Source of the DNA: Salinivirgaceae bacterium
Lineage (GTDB): Bacteria; Bacteroidota; Bacteroidia; Bacteroidales; SZUA-534
Assembly: GCA_024405635.1 (NCBI GenBank)
Contig: JAKSOL010000007.1
Span: forward strand, 63,981 to 127,980
DNA length: 64,000 nt
Direction: 5' to 3'
Below the pieces are notes generated by a model, which worked only from the letters and a program-made list of their open reading frames with translations, was not told the DNA's origin and searched no databases. Each line of letters begins with the position of its first letter. Within the stretch, counting starts at the first letter, position 1. Positions 15,693 to 24,819 of the stretch are shown one piece after another. Made by a program: the position numbers and the translations under genes.

Positions 15693-15855
15693 TGTATATA
15701 CTTTTTTTGAAAAACAGTGCCAAATGTATAAAAAACCTTACTTGCACAAAAATAATACGCGGGACTTTTTAGATAGCTGAGGATGCTGAGTCAAATAACA
15801 AGAACGAAAGTGTTACGTATTATATAATGCTCAATCTAAGACAAGTAAAACCATA

Positions 15856-16141
15856 TCTACTCTTATCAACGGAAATGGACTAAAATGATGTGGAATGTCT
15901 ACTTTTGTAAAACTAAAACGCAGAAAAACAACGCCGATGTCTACTTCGGTAAATTATTAATTCAATAAAAAATTTTCTGTGTCTACTTTTTTGAGCTGGT
16001 ACAAATTTTTTGGTCCAATGTTTTCATTACCGTCATTTTGATATCAATTTTCGAAAAAAGTTACTGTCATTTTGAGTAGATTTTCCAATATTTTTACCGT
16101 CATTTTGAAACTAAATCATAATATTTGTACCGTCATTTTGA
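15856..16141. repeat. Two sets of phased short direct repeats upstream of the AAA ATPase
   Basis: TCTACT core at 15856, 15898, 15940, 15982 (42-bp period); TACYGTCATTTTGA at 16028, 16062, 16095, 16128 (33-34-bp period). Confidence 0.8.
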
Positions 16142-16159
16142 GCTCAATACTTATTTATC

Positions 16160-17506
16160 ATGGCCGAAATATATCAAAGAGAGGCATTGCAAAGCCTCAG
16201 GGAATGGAAGGAAAAGGCTGAACGCAAACCACTTATATTAAGAGGTCCGCGTCAGGTTGGGAAAACTACACTCGTGGATATTTTCTCAAAGGATTTTGAA
16301 TCGTACGTTTACCTAAACCTTGAAATCGAGGAAAACGCAAAACTATTCGATACGAGCAAAAACATAAACGAGCTAATAACCTCGATATTTTTCATTGGCG
16401 GGCAAAAGATCAACAAGACAAGCAGCCTACTTTTCATCGACGAGATACAGAACTCGGCACAGGCTGTTATGATGCTGAGATATTTCTACGAGCAGGCTCC
16501 ATGGCTTTATGTAATATCAGCAGGCTCACTATTGGAAAACCTTGAAAAAAGGAATATCTCATTCCCTGTGGGCAGAGTGGAATATATGGCTTTGCGTCCA
16601 TTCTCGTTCAAGGAATATGCGTGGGCAAATCTAGGCGAGGATGTCTACAACGCCATCAACTCCGTATCCATACCAGAGGCTTATCACAGCAAGCTGATAA
16701 AGGAATTCAACACATACACATTGATAGGCGGCATGCCAGAAGTGGTATCCAACTTCATAAAATACAAAGATATTCTGAAACTGAACGAGATATACGACAC
16801 CCTGCTGACCGCGTATCGTGATGACATAGAGAAATACGCTCCAAGAGAGAGCATAACCAAGGCAATGCGTTACATAATGGAACACGGTTTCCCATACGCG
16901 TCGCAGGAAATAGTATTGGGAGGCTTTGCAGGATCGGCTTACAAGTCAAGGGAAATCGGAGAGGCATTCTCGCTGCTATCAAAATCGATGCTAACAGAAC
17001 TTGTGTATCCATCCACGTCAACCGAGATACCGGCTCCTCCAGATATGAAGCGCAGACCCAAACTAATGTGGCTCGATACAGGAATAGTAAACTACGCCTC
17101 TGGCCTTAGGAAAGAGATACTTGGCGCCAATGATATTCTCGACGTTTACAAAGGTAAGATTGCGGAACACATTGTAGGCCAGGAAATAATATCGACCGAC
17201 AGCAGATGCTCTTTCCGAAGAAGCTACTGGGTAAGAAACAAACAAGGCTCTGACGCAGAAATGGATTTCACCTTACAGAAAGACAACAAGATGATCCCAA
17301 TAGAAGTAAAAGCAGGAACCAACGCACACTTAAAATCGCTTCACATCTATATGGAAGAATCAGATCAGAATGTAGCCATCAGAATTTGGTCGAACCCGAT
17401 GCAAATAGATGACATAAAAACTCCGAAAGGCAAAACTTTCAAACTGATTAACCTGCCTTTCTACTATGTGAGCAAGATAAACGAGATTTTGGAAAAGGAG
17501 ATATAA
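16160..17506 (+). CDS. AAA_14 ATPase with DUF4143 / C-terminal PD-(D/E)xK-like domain; complete gene inside spacer 1
   Basis: Walker A GPRQVGKT, Walker B LLFIDEIQ, GGMPE, C-terminal EMDF...PIEVK. Confidence 0.9.
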   Translation: MAEIYQREALQSLREWKEKAERKPLILRGPRQVGKTTLVDIFSKDFESYVYLNLEIEENAKLFDTSKNINELITSIFFIGGQKINKTSSLLFIDEIQNSAQAVMMLRYFYEQAPWLYVISAGSLLENLEKRNISFPVGRVEYMALRPFSFKEYAWANLGEDVYNAINSVSIPEAYHSKLIKEFNTYTLIGGMPEVVSNFIKYKDILKLNEIYDTLLTAYRDDIEKYAPRESITKAMRYIMEHGFPYASQEIVLGGFAGSAYKSREIGEAFSLLSKSMLTELVYPSTSTEIPAPPDMKRRPKLMWLDTGIVNYASGLRKEILGANDILDVYKGKIAEHIVGQEIISTDSRCSFRRSYWVRNKQGSDAEMDFTLQKDNKMIPIEVKAGTNAHLKSLHIYMEESDQNVAIRIWSNPMQIDDIKTPKGKTFKLINLPFYYVSKINEILEKEI

Positions 17507-17514
17507 GAAAAAAA

Positions 17515-17567
17515 TCGGAGTTTTAGCGGAATCTATCTAAAAAGGGCACATTCCGCTAAAACTCCGA
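17515..17567. repeat. Perfect 18-bp inverted repeat after the ATPase
   Basis: TCGGAGTTTTAGCGGAAT (17515-17532) / ATTCCGCTAAAACTCCGA (17550-17567). Confidence 0.8.
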
Positions 17568-17739
17568 AAGGCAAATTTTTAATTATTTATCTGATATTGT
17601 GAAAATTAGGCTATGTTCTCAGCAAAATGAGGTAGGGCGTTTTTAGGGATTTTAGGGGAAGTTCGAAAAGGTGAATAACCTGCCTTTCTGGTATACGAGC
17701 AAGATTTATGTATCGTGATACATAAGTTTTACATAATGC

Positions 17740-22722: not shown

Positions 22723-23563
22723 TTTTTATATGGTAGAAAACACCAATAAGGACAAACGCCTACGCTTAATGAAAATGAAAGCGCTTGCACTGGCTGAACC
22801 GCTTGACGGTTTAGCCACAACCAAGTGTGCTAACAATCAACCTGCCGATATTGTTAATCGATATTTGGATTTACTCGATAAGCCAACACGCGCCGCCGCA
22901 ATGGGCGTTTTGTCGTCGGTTGAGCGCTTTATTGAGCAAGCCGATAATAATTACCCTTATATGGCTGAATTTGCGGCTATGGCTGTAAGTTTGAGCGATT
23001 ATATTAACGAAGAAACGGCAACACCACAAATTGCAGCCATCGACCTTAATAACATTCATAAAATATCAGGCGTTAATGTTGATAATAGCGAATTAAAAGG
23101 CATTGTAAGTAGTAAAACGCTGCTTGCTCATCAGTTTGAGCCGCTGAACTTTGGTGGTAAGTGGAAACTGTTATTTGGTCGCCCAACCGCGCCTTTTAAG
23201 GTAATGGTACACGGAGCGCCCGGAAATGGCAAATCAACTTTTGCTATACAATTCGCTAAATACCTTGCCAGCAGCCACAAGTTGCGTGTATTGTATATTG
23301 CTAATGAAGAGAGTTTTACATACACCTTTCAGGAGAAACTTATGCGCCTGAACGCAATAGACGACAACCTGAAAATAGCCGATTCGCTACCTGATAACTT
23401 TGACGATTATGATGTAGCGTTTTTCGATTCAGTAAACACAATGAAACTCGATATTGACGATTTACGACGAATATTCAAACAAAACGACAAAACTTCGTTT
23501 GTGTTGATTTTTCAAAACAACAAGAAAGGTCAATTTAGGGGTTCGCTTGAGTGTTTTACATAA
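22703..23563 (+). pseudogene. RecA/RadA-like P-loop ATPase of a mobile element, 3'-truncated by repeat 8
   Basis: Walker A GAPGNGKST, VLYIANEE, Walker B AFFDSV, K.GQFRGS; the stop codon (..CFT*) is supplied by the repeat. Confidence 0.75.
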
Positions 23564-23587
23564 TGCTCAAACTCAGACAAGTAAAAC

Positions 23588-23637
23588 AGACTATTGGCTA
23601 ATTTATTGAATAAGAGTATACTATCATTGGTTTGCTG
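23588..23637 (-). promoter_or_regulatory. Putative 50-bp array leader
   Basis: AT-rich gap between the cas2 stop and the first perfect repeat; contains ATTCAATAAATTA (minus strand), one mismatch from the IHF consensus WATCAANNNNTTR. Confidence 0.5.
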
Positions 23638-23958
23638 TTAAAAAAAATCAATCAAATCGGGCTTTTTTAGCAAAATCTCGTCATTTTTTCGTTTCTGTTT
23701 TCGTCCAAAATAATGGTAAGAAGCTTCGTTGTGTTTGTCATCTACCACTACTACACTTATTTGGCATTTGCCGCAAATAGCTTCCATTATTCGCTTTTTA
23801 TGAACTAATGCGTTGGCCATAGAGTAACAATACCGTATATATAGATTGGAGTATAACTTATTGAATCCGTCCTTCTCTAGTTGACGCGAAAAATTCTTTT
23901 TACATTCCTTGCCTGTTGATGTGCGGTTGGAAATGTTCATAAAAACGTAAATCCACAT
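23638..23958 (-). CDS. cas2: CRISPR-associated Cas2, type II-like but divergent
   Basis: MWIYVF..., L.KDGF, Y.R.C.S..NA.VH.KR, C-terminal L.DFF; directly downstream of cas1. Confidence 0.88.
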   Translation of the reverse strand: MWIYVFMNISNRTSTGKECKKNFSRQLEKDGFNKLYSNLYIRYCYSMANALVHKKRIMEAICGKCQISVVVVDDKHNEASYHYFGRKQKRKNDEILLKKPDLIDFF

Positions 23959-23961
23959 AAC

Positions 23962-24819
23962 TTAAAACAATGAAGGGTAATATATTACACGTCGCTCACC
24001 TAAGTAAATCTGCGATAGCGAATAAGTTGTTTGTGACACATCGTCGGGTTTTATTGACTCGTAGAATAGCTCCAAAATGGCTTTTTTGAAGTTGTGGTCA
24101 ATGCATCTTTGGCCGATGGTGTATAGTTCAAGCACTTTTTCGTCAACAAATGGTCGATATGGTTCCATAACATCGTCGCTCAACGGAAAGGAGTTGTATC
24201 GGTTTTTATGAAAAACACCAATCATTGGCAATAAACCTGAATTCATTAGCGCACGCGATACTACCGACCGCAAAATGGCATATCCGTAGTTTAGCATATC
24301 GTTGGGACAATTGCCGTAACGGTCGCGTATAAAATCTTTGCCTAGCAAAAGTTTCCAATATGTTGCGGCTGCCAAAGCCTCGCGATTTGTTGTGTCGCCA
24401 CTTTTAACATTCTTATGGTACTTGCTCAACACATCTTCTCCCTTGCCCAATTTTTGTAGCAATAGCGACTGGTTGTGTATCTTATGTTCTATTATCTGTT
24501 TCCAGATTTGTTTTCTAACGGGTTCTGTTGTCGCTAACTGCGCGTTAAAGGTCATTGTTTGCCGTACGTTTGACTCTAAGTCTAAAGTCATGCTTACGGG
24601 CATGTGGCGCTCGTCGCAAAAAACTATGCTTATGTTGTTTTGAGACAACTTGTTAAGCAGTGGCACAGTGATGCGTACCGAATGGTTATCGACTAAAATA
24701 CCCGACACGTCCTCTAACGAACGCATGATTGGGTCTTTATCTTCTTGACAAATTAAAAGCTGCCCATCTTTCAACGATAGATCGGCTTTGTTTTCAAATA
24801 CAAGTGTTTGTTTTGGCAT
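23962..24819 (-). CDS. cas1: CRISPR-associated integrase Cas1, type II-like
   Basis: VKSGD..NREA, N.MLNYGYAILRS, G..H.N.YN.F.L.DD.MEPYRP.VD; catalytic E/H/E residues present. Confidence 0.96.
   Translation of the reverse strand: MPKQTLVFENKADLSLKDGQLLICQEDKDPIMRSLEDVSGILVDNHSVRITVPLLNKLSQNNISIVFCDERHMPVSMTLDLESNVRQTMTFNAQLATTEPVRKQIWKQIIEHKIHNQSLLLQKLGKGEDVLSKYHKNVKSGDTTNREALAAATYWKLLLGKDFIRDRYGNCPNDMLNYGYAILRSVVSRALMNSGLLPMIGVFHKNRYNSFPLSDDVMEPYRPFVDEKVLELYTIGQRCIDHNFKKAILELFYESIKPDDVSQTTYSLSQIYLGERRVIYYPSLF

Follow-up and report, generated by a model that had tools for sequence, protein, structure and literature searches.

The window analysed here, a stretch of 64,000 nucleotides, belongs to the genome of a gut bacterium (G000; metagenome assembly, 36 contigs, 99.78% complete) and carries cas1 and cas2 beside an array of eight 35-bp direct repeats, six of them identical. 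The features of the locus are given below by coordinates, strand (where assigned) and description.

15817..15851, repeat R1, terminal degenerate copy with 4 mismatches
15852..17725, insert I1, 1874 bp, with a complete AAA_14/DUF4143 ATPase gene (16160-17506)
17726..17760, repeat R2, 2 mismatches, the older repeat variant, present also in G032
17761..18214, insert I2, 454 bp, with an 84-aa ORF running into R2; the leader-proximal insert in run X3
18215..18249, repeat R3
18250..18701, insert I3, 452 bp, full-length homologue of an internal I6 segment
18702..18736, repeat R4
18737..19148, insert I4, 412 bp, exact copy of G000:C14:45931-46342
19149..19183, repeat R5
19184..19973, insert I5, 790 bp, holding a DUF4160 ORF that continues into R5, one of 100 aa and a complete DUF2442 ORF
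19974..20008, repeat R6
20009..21167, insert I6, 1159 bp, with a 5'-truncated gene and a complete 131-aa ORF
21168..21202, repeat R7
21203..23552, insert I7, 2350 bp, with three ORFs on the + strand, of which the first stays open through the left repeat
23553..23587, repeat R8, leader-proximal, consensus
23588..23637, - strand, leader, 50 bp from the cas2 stop to the first repeat (from the sequence)
23638..23958, - strand, cas2, divergent (106 aa; pairwise homology)
23962..24819, - strand, cas1, type II family (285 aa; Pfam Cas_Cas1, 9.6e-31)

The repeat number, mismatches and intervals reported in an earlier note on this DNA were reproduced exactly, as was the 50-bp gap between cas2 and the array, and the leader-to-trailer polarity described there was upheld by the position of the degenerate copies R1 and R2 at the far end. 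Scanning of the window at ≤3 mismatches returned 7 repeat copies, versus 0 in 100 dinucleotide shuffles. With 8 copies of 35 bp the array has the repeats of a CRISPR (at least 3 near-identical direct repeats of about 23-55 bp), and adjacent cas1-cas2, a leader and degenerate terminal repeats accompany them; the intervals are 412-2350 bp in place of short, near-uniform spacers of tens of bp. A solo repeat flanked by a similar leader lies on contig C8. The island is bounded by purU, as previously noted (ORF 14826-15692, - strand; Formyl_trans_N and ACT domains), and the genes beyond cas1 are Vut_1, QueC and QueF. A queuosine riboswitch had also been claimed, but an Rfam search of 14000-27000 (E ≤ 0.1) returned only a chance miRNA match, and no tracrRNA; because the next genes are Vut_1, QueC and QueF, such a riboswitch is still plausible.

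The cas1 product scored 284.5 bits against NCBIfam TIGR03639 (type II cas1_NMENI; cut-off 120), and positions E147, H204 and E219 are conserved in the alignment. Both Cas1 and Cas2 of a type II system are present, Cas2 by pairwise comparison only (31% identity to a canonical II-C Cas2, E 1e-19), its sequence failing the family models of Pfam and NCBIfam even at E ≤ 10. By alignment the beta1 Asp is replaced by Asn in the window Cas2 and is lost in all four Cas2 proteins adjoining long arrays. When G000 was compared with the related assembly G032, dN/dS was 0.076 for cas2 and 0.18 for part of cas1 (dS 0.35-0.45); both genes are under purifying selection. The G032 cas1 contains an in-frame TAG.

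The locus had been described as effector-less and without an anti-repeat, and both statements held within the searches made. No match to Cas9 (TIGR01865), the type II signature gene, was found in the 99.78%-complete host genome, and no Cas9-sized ORF adjoins cas1 in the related loci L043, L040 and G181. No reverse-oriented repeat copy was found genome-wide on either strand at ≤8 substitutions, in an ungapped scan that a gapped anti-repeat would escape. Neither classical (canonical) arrays nor a canonical Cas2 Pfam match was found. The neighbouring genes differ at every locus, none being conserved.

The inserts are mostly arbitrarily truncated phage-like fragments in mixed orientation, and at least 9 of their 14 boundaries cut reading frames at arbitrary points (by reading of the ORF maps). 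The truncated gene of I6 corresponds to positions 270-391 of 459 in the phrog_23416 profile; the last ORF of I7, an ATPase cut by R8, matches positions 13-159 of 310 in phrog_6891. A source was found for I4 and for no other insert: it is the host's own gene from codon 2 onward (412/412 bp identical). I3 aligns along its whole length (452/452 bp) to bases 265-734 of I6 at 76% identity, in the opposite orientation. Since the homologies of I4 and I3 reach both repeat edges, there is no room for a 30-bp spacer remnant. The earlier view of the array as an integron-like bank of foreign genes is not supported by this content, the inserts being mostly truncated, in either orientation and in one case self-derived; they are long random fragments, not cassettes.

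The same layout was found in five further arrays in four other assemblies, with inserts of about 176-2254 bp:

G032:C22, inserts of 572, 233 and 598 bp
L043, inserts of 516, 296, 852 and 385 bp
L040, inserts of 561 and 2254 bp
G181:C25, inserts of 409, 232 and 342 bp
G181:C7, orphan array of 5 repeats without cas genes, inserts of about 1061, 246, 176 and 585 bp

Each related array has its own distinct 35-bp repeat and a degenerate distal copy. Leader-type gaps of 46-49 bp are present in G032, L043 and L040; the G181 array lies upstream of cas1, not after cas2. Counting the window, cas1-cas2 lies beside five of the six arrays (four of the five relatives), and none of the 23 intervals is spacer-sized or shorter than 176 bp. 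The comparison with homologous loci that the earlier note had called for thus returned long inserts only. In a Cas1 tree (52 rows, quick IQ-TREE) a long-array clade with SH-aLRT 99 was placed within the Bacteroidales type II Cas1; its six rows comprise the four long-array Cas1 in the tree and two on contigs too short to judge, and none of the 35 Cas1 that accompany canonical arrays belongs to it. The clade has members in several Bacteroidales families (Cas1 identity between them 49-55%) and keeps a constant format, with Cas1 of 285-287 aa, Cas2 of 104-106 aa and no Cas9; in alignments its members have in common an 8-residue deletion near the Cas1 C-terminus. It is rare, identity of ≥50% being reached by 6 of the best 150 representatives (library of 1.84 billion).

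Contiguity was assessed in Logan k=31 contigs, which supply all of the read evidence, from run X1, the likely source run and possibly the sample used to assemble the genome, and run X3, from another study. Unbranched X1 contigs covered 15976-18244, 19156-20002, 21173-23581 and 23559-24971 at depths of 23-29 (25.5 for 21173-23581), versus 25-26 for the chromosomal flanks. The depth of the I4 contig was 51.1, double the flank value, and the loose ends of this contig equal the C14 flanks. In X3 a 677-bp contig connects 18074-18214 with 23588-24088 via a single repeat; 5338 bp are skipped, and 35 bases fit both sides. I1 and I2 were covered in X3 and I5-I7 were not. As X3 joins the end of I2 via one repeat to the leader and cas2, it represents a strain without the five leader-side inserts. 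Strains differ at the leader end, a comparison proposed in the earlier note, and the shorter array of X3 could be a deletion between identical repeats rather than the result of additions in G000.

The array was confirmed to be real, and no de Bruijn chimera of the kind that the contiguity check was meant to expose was seen. A true array of ~30-bp spacers, from which the assembler walked into co-assembled phage genomes and back, is extremely improbable: a metagenome origin (36 contigs) and phage-like fragments in several inserts would fit it, but independent k=31 contigs connect successive repeats at host depth and show no branch ~30 bp in, I4 is host DNA at exactly twice that depth, the I2-repeat-leader junction is present in a run from another study, and five arrays in other assemblies, with different repeats, have the same layout and no short interval.

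Conversion of a short-spacer array, by double crossovers with phage DNA or by secondary insertions into spacers, is very unlikely. Spacers do offer 30-bp homologies to phages, and I3 and I6 come from related elements; against this, all six arrays are devoid of short spacers, the I4 and I3 homologies leave no residual spacer, and I4 would need a pair of self-targeting spacers separated by 412 bp. The trait moreover follows a single Cas1 clade, which has protein changes of its own.

The reading that we favour, at a probability of roughly 0.7, is that long DNA, unprocessed, is integrated by a type II-derived Cas1-Cas2 working without Cas9, each event adding a copy of the repeat. The ancestor would have been a Bacteroidales type II CRISPR-Cas system, of which cas1, a divergent cas2, a ~50-bp leader and 35-bp repeats were retained. 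Cas1-Cas2 would keep the canonical reaction, with staggered attack at both ends of the leader-proximal repeat, and gap repair would then duplicate that repeat. Its substrates would be linear fragments of about 0.2-2.4 kb, neither trimmed nor measured, coming from phage-like elements, with the host chromosome as an occasional source, and inserted in either orientation regardless of gene boundaries. New inserts would enter at the cas-proximal end while old inserts and decaying repeats pile up distally, and the length limit may have been lost along with Cas9-dependent processing. One might speculate that the minimum insert, roughly 180-230 bp, reflects looping of the fragment so that both ends reach one complex. 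Of the earlier proposal that the integrase inserts 0.4-2.4 kb fragments, the cas1-cas2-associated array with gene-sized intervals stands, and it is from this anatomy that we infer Cas1-Cas2 to be the catalyst of the insertions. That relatives share this layout suggests a naturally occurring enzyme able to write long DNA at a single defined site.

If the repeats served a different, unlinked recombination system, or homologous recombination with mobile elements that carry them, cas1-cas2 would be an inactive relic. Orphan copies that lack cas genes, namely the single repeat of C8 and the five-repeat G181:C7 array, and the stop codon in G032 cas1 fit such an origin. It is nonetheless improbable, as cas1-cas2 adjoins five of six arrays while all other neighbours vary, both genes are under purifying selection with catalytic residues kept, the inserts are linear and truncated, not entire circular elements bearing a repeat, and every insert is flanked by exact 35-bp duplications.

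A decaying type II locus, in which Cas9 was lost and a still active integrase makes sloppy, neutral insertions of no function, overlaps with the favoured integration of long DNA by Cas1-Cas2 on mechanism and differs from it on function alone. In favour of decay, no effector was found, relics are present, the clade is rare at the identity cut-off given above, and the inserts include truncated genes, both orientations and one piece of self DNA. Maintenance across several Bacteroidales families at 49-55% Cas1 identity, in a constant Cas1/Cas2 format without Cas9 and with dN/dS of 0.08-0.18, makes decay rather unlikely. A functional extension of the Cas1-Cas2 integration reading is possible and is offered tentatively: the locus may represent a new CRISPR-derived class in which Cas1-Cas2 without an effector writes DNA of hundreds of bp up to kilobases into a defined 35-bp site as its native activity and is maintained through selection for a memory use independent of a crRNA-guided nuclease, for example long sense or antisense RNA or homology-based interference against phages and mobile elements.

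Among known systems the locus is closest in parts to the Bacteroidales type II-C modules (cas9-cas1-cas2-array). Its Cas1 falls in TIGR03639 and nests among Bacteroidales type II Cas1, its Cas2 is homologous (31% identity), the ~35-bp repeat has GTTTT...AAAAC-type ends, and the array lies beside cas2 with a degenerate distal repeat. Unlike these modules it has no Cas9 and, in the ungapped scan, no anti-repeat; the Cas1 has the 8-residue deletion, the Cas2 is without a Pfam or NCBIfam match, and the intervals are 176-2350 bp versus the roughly 30 bp implied by relatives' repeat periods of 65-79. According to the available part of one report, type II-A Cas1-Cas2 without Cas9 and Csn2 inserts unprocessed substrates of non-physiological length in vitro, length control residing in a Cas9-containing supercomplex (PMC8034620). 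The window locus, naturally without Cas9, resembles that integrase-alone condition; the part available concerns another subtype and prespacers of >30 bp, not kilobase DNA, whereas the long-array lineage evolved without Cas9 and its inserts of 0.2-2.4 kb are fixed in genomes.

The 35-bp repeat duplication is formally a target-site duplication, and in this the locus is like casposons. In casposons kilobase DNA is inserted by an integrase of the Cas1 family, with duplication of the target site. The window Cas1 is instead a type II CRISPR Cas1 accompanied by Cas2, no polymerase domain (PolB) was found among the scanned insert ORFs, no terminal inverted repeats were evident in the ORF maps and domain matches of the inserts, and the cargo is a stack of random, unrelated fragments at a single site rather than an element able to mobilise itself. 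As in integrons, foreign DNA accrues serially at one site beside an integrase gene, the newest nearest to it. No tyrosine recombinase was found between purU and the que genes (ORF map and domain matches), identical duplicated 35-bp repeats, not attC sites, delimit the units, and most of the cargo consists of pieces of truncated genes facing either way instead of complete promoter-less cassettes.

CRISPR adaptation is generally seen as capture of short, fixed-length DNA. A natural Cas1-Cas2 lineage apparently without length limit or effector, still under purifying selection, bears on where the spacer ruler of type II resides (integrase or Cas9 supercomplex), on the relation of CRISPR to casposon-like integration of long DNA and on what adaptation modules do alone. 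An integrase that places unprocessed DNA of 0.2-2.4 kb at a 35-bp site by a short leader would be of interest for DNA recording or insertion and, if the new-class reading is true, would provide a natural template for writing or recording kilobase DNA site-specifically. The earlier note knew of no described system like this, and literature searches likewise found no published description; standard CRISPR finders cap spacer length, such arrays therefore go undetected, and this may be why none has been described. The oldest and longest inserts, I1 and the 2254-bp insert of L040 (which carries CstA and a PCC-domain gene), hold complete cellular-type genes and could be later rearrangements rather than captures.

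The array in the window consists of a 35-bp unit (GTTTTACATAATGCTCAAACTCAGACAAGTAAAAC, + strand) present eight times (R1 to R8, R8 being leader-proximal and R1 terminal); the repeats enclose seven inserts (I1 to I7, I7 nearest cas2).

Features of the array, the cas genes and the island flanks (window coordinates; each repeat is 35 bp long, on the + strand, and given by its start)
15817: R1
I1, 1874 bp: complete AAA_14/DUF4143 ATPase
17726: R2
I2, 454 bp
18215: R3
I3, 452 bp
18702: R4
I4, 412 bp: starts at codon 2 of a gene on contig C14 of the host genome and ends mid-gene
19149: R5
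I5, 790 bp: DUF4160 ORF extending into R5; complete DUF2442 ORF
19974: R6
I6, 1159 bp: begins with a partial match to phrog_23416 (positions 270-391 of 459)
21168: R7
I7, 2350 bp: first ORF open across R7; last an ATPase (phrog_6891 profile 13-159 of 310) running into R8
23553: R8
23638-23958, - strand: cas2-like ORF, 106 aa, stopping 50 bp short of the first repeat
23962-24819, - strand: cas1 (Pfam Cas_Cas1, 9.6e-31; type II TIGR03639, 284.5 bits, cut-off 120)
One island boundary: purU
Opposite island boundary: Vut_1, QueC and QueF genes

The repeats were recovered by repeat search and recomputed, and the gene-sized intervals, the six identical copies and the two degenerate distal ones (2 mismatches at 17726, 4 at 15817) came out at the values of the earlier note; 100 shuffles gave no copy, so none is expected by chance. 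The 106-aa protein was unmatched by Pfam and NCBIfam models even at E ≤ 10, and aligned at 31% identity (E 1e-19) with a relative's canonical Cas2, encoded in a type II-C locus. The assignment of purU to one boundary was borne out by its Formyl_trans_N and ACT domains. The queuosine riboswitch placed beside cas1 was unreported by Rfam, in which no riboswitch, tracrRNA or CRISPR-DR family was matched. Positions 24820-24944, ahead of the start codon and followed by Vut_1, QueC and QueF, gave no preQ1 riboswitch at E ≤ 0.1 and look preQ1-I-like by eye.

The host genome (G000; 36 contigs, of which the window is C34; 2.66 Mb, 99.78% complete) also contains a solo repeat (1 mismatch) at C8:646-830. 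Next to it come 50 bp resembling the leader and the final ~75 nt of a cas2 copy, and GNAT acetyltransferase genes flank the site, which resembles a second module in decay or a duplication relic. A lone 28/35 match close to a contig end (C5:66901-66935) is possibly another relic.

Cas1 was searched first in 60 relatives and next across 400 genomes from the order, and a related-locus search was added, which returned four relatives in genome contigs and two in metagenome contigs. Four further cas1-cas2 loci of the same kind were recovered in this way; G181 additionally has an orphan array.

Related arrays (Cas1 identity is to the window; insert lengths in bp)
Genome G032, contig C22: Cas1 94%; array 49 bp past cas2; inserts 572, 233, 598
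L043, a 221-kb metagenome contig: Cas1 54%; array 47 bp past cas2; inserts 516, 296, 852, 385
Locus L040: Cas1 49%; array 46 bp past cas2; inserts 561, 2254
Genome G181, contig C25: Cas1 55%; array upstream of cas1; inserts 409, 232, 342
Genome G181, contig C7 (L101, 3910-7239): orphan array with no adjoining cas genes; inserts about 1061, 246, 176, 585

The 35-bp repeat is specific to each array, always with G(T/A)TTT...AAAC ends, and the degenerate copy lies farthest from the cas genes. The earlier note had allowed that homologous loci might carry short spacers only; none of the 23 intervals in the window and related arrays is below 176 bp. The orphan array has five repeat variants (spacing 1096, 281, 211 and 620) and sits within 254-nt direct repeats (89% identical). 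Among the order's more distantly related Cas1 loci, most lie beside arrays with 65-79 bp periods, and beside cas9 where inspected.

In a quick maximum-likelihood Cas1 tree (52 rows, after removal of the broken L032 and the duplicate entries L044, L045 and L048), the proteins of G000, G181, L043 and L040 were grouped (SH-aLRT 99) with those of L039 and G034:C63, two contigs that end too early for an array to be visible. The 35 Cas1 that accompany canonical arrays all fell outside this clade. Its members retain the acidic residues and the histidine that are invariant (E147, H204 and E219, window numbering) and have in common an 8-residue deletion near the C-terminus, absent in the basal G034 protein; all three close representatives checked in the database carry the deletion, and the next three lack it. 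The beta1 Asp of Cas2 is lost (N, R, R, S) in the four Cas2 beside long arrays and kept in L039 and G034. The clade is rare; of the best 150 matches among 1.84 billion library representatives, only six reached ≥50% Cas1 identity, and only one of these at full length. A homologue search with the Cas2 protein, for which the word index is coarse, gave one candidate. On G034:C63 (L033), which stops 83 nt past cas2, a canonical array of 47-bp repeats (41-713) lies 2.3 kb upstream of cas1-cas2 (3058-4260), beyond a sulfatase gene.

Sequencing runs were read as Logan k=31 contigs mapped onto window positions 13000-27000. Run X1, a gut metagenome with 99% of sampled words, may be the source of the assembly; partial word content was also found in runs of two other studies. 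The strain difference at the leader end that the earlier note had looked for was found in X3, a run of another study, in which a 677-bp contig links 18074-18214 (the end of I2), one repeat, and 23588-24088 (leader and cas2). The junction omits 5338 bp, and 35 bases match both sides, so the leader side of the X3 array ends at I2. G000 carries five additional inserts between I2 and the leader relative to X3, which is what polarised acquisition predicts. Recombination between identical repeats, by which the X3 lineage would have deleted these inserts, is a possible alternative reading of the same junction. Pieces of I1 and I2 are present in X3; the lack of cover over I5-I7 in X3, and over I6-I7 in X2, was treated as a gap in contig cover, and only the junction contig was taken as evidence.

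I4 is identical over 412/412 positions (BLAST) to C14:45931-46342 of the host genome. The C14 gene differs from G000 by 1-3 SNPs in X2, X3 and X6 (at 18892, 18912 and 19002) and the I4 and C14 copies are identical in X1, which indicates that I4 was recently copied from the G000 strain's own allele; I5-I7 lie on the leader side of I4. In X2, I5 (7 differences over 790 bp) is contained in a 1121-bp contig that aligns at either end with 30 nt of the repeat. Judging by how long this contig is and where its pieces map, we infer an X2 insert of ~1061 bp containing I5, which would be an independent, overlapping capture. A joint from the 3' end of a repeat to 22095-like sequence (17760->22095) was seen at host-like depth in all four runs, and its counterpart is absent from the assembled genome; further joints, at low depth, were 15971->21838 and 18453->21214. 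C33:64217-64408 is a mosaic in which one piece resembles I2 (85%) and two resemble I7, with an 8-nt junction. This mosaic accounts for the joint 21570->22149 that three runs show, and is probably a degraded relative of the elements that supplied the inserts.

The earlier note had feared a de Bruijn chimera. If ~30-bp spacers had been bridged via phage genomes, the graph would branch ~30 bp into each insert and depth would be phage-like; in the X1 contigs no such branching was seen and insert depth was not phage-like. Single X1 contigs spanned 15976-18244 (part of I1, R2, I2 and 30 nt of R3), 19156-20002 (I5 with repeat flanks), 21173-23581 (I7 with repeat flanks) and 23559-24971, at depths of 23.5-29 against 26.2 and 25.4 in the chromosomal flanks. 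I4 formed a separate 412-bp contig at depth 51.1, with loose ends equal to the flanks of the C14 copy, as expected of two host-depth copies, the array insert and the chromosomal gene segment. The chimera was rejected on the unbranched host-depth contigs and on the recurrence in other assemblies, and the array is taken as contiguous. Secondary insertion into short spacers was rejected since the I4 and I3 homologies extend to both repeat edges.

By our reading of the ORF map, reading frames are cut at no fewer than 9 of the 14 insert boundaries. The full 452 bp of I3 is 76% homologous, in inverted orientation, to an internal part of I6, which indicates two captures from related elements without orientation control. 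The two share a conserved non-coding stretch (18250-18480 in I3, 20520-20742 in I6) with a hairpin and T-run between gene ends, for which no Rfam family was matched. The third G032 insert terminates in a phrog_19194 fragment (positions 321-430 of 438), and the distal 2254-bp insert of L040 holds CstA and PCC-domain genes. With frames cut and one insert self-derived, the inserts are random long fragments rather than cassettes, and the integron-like gene bank proposed earlier is not upheld. Relative to the cas-side leader, insert genes are on the + strand in I7 and I1, on the - strand in I5, I4, I3 and I2, and mixed in I6; genes on both strands leave antisense-RNA defence unsupported. No source was found for the I7 ATPase by IMG/VR pattern scan, or for I7 by blastn against a phage collection. 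When the complete array was searched as DNA against 32 genomes of the same family, only a weak match appeared, to the I1 ATPase, and insert self-matches in G181, G032 and a further genome, G430, were only repeat copies and one small dispersed repeat.

The description of the locus as effector-less stands: no Cas9 was matched in the G000 genome, and no Cas9-sized ORF was found beside the related arrays. A linked effector was rejected, the adjoining genes being unrelated housekeeping genes that differ in each locus. In the same genome the canonical Cas2 Pfam model was unmatched, Cas3 gave sub-threshold helicase matches only, and Cas12a gave no match, a result that carries no weight since the control genomes gave none either. 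A k-mer scan of G000 gave no classical array, the candidates being coding tandem repeats. In agreement with the reported lack of an anti-repeat, no reverse-oriented repeat copy was found in G000 by an ungapped scan with up to 8 substitutions tolerated.

Judged from sequence, the exact 35-bp duplication around each insert, the fixed short leader by cas2, the decay at the far end and the variation at the near end would together be the signature of Cas1-Cas2 integration. PMC8034620 reports that Cas1-Cas2 of S. pyogenes, acting by itself, integrates 'unprocessed substrates', and that the ~30-bp product length needs a Cas9-Csn2-Cas1-Cas2 supercomplex; on that account a type II integrase lacking Cas9 is expected to be without control of length, PAM choice or orientation choice. 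Such lost control fits an array whose inserts point both ways and include one of self origin. The lineage would then take in any linear fragments that reach it and, more speculatively, a fragment may need to loop to present both ends, there being no inserts below about 180 bp. The enzyme family and the reaction are known already; substrate length is the novel element, and the absent effector and resulting architecture are also new. A full-text literature search, the coverage of which leaves out most subscription journals, gave no account of CRISPR arrays in nature whose inserts measure hundreds of bp to kb, nor of a comparable type II Cas1-Cas2 clade without an effector.

A comparison of G000 with G032 gave dN/dS values of 0.076 (cas2) and 0.18 (cas1, over the portion that could be aligned) at dS 0.35-0.45; the G032 cas1 contains a single in-frame TAG. 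A function is favoured by the purifying selection and by the survival of the module in several families; the truncated cargo and the relics speak against one. Tandem repeats of 15-nt period (CATATATTTTTATGC-like) were observed at the ends of G000 contigs C9, C15, C22, C30 and C33, where they probably cause the assembly breaks.
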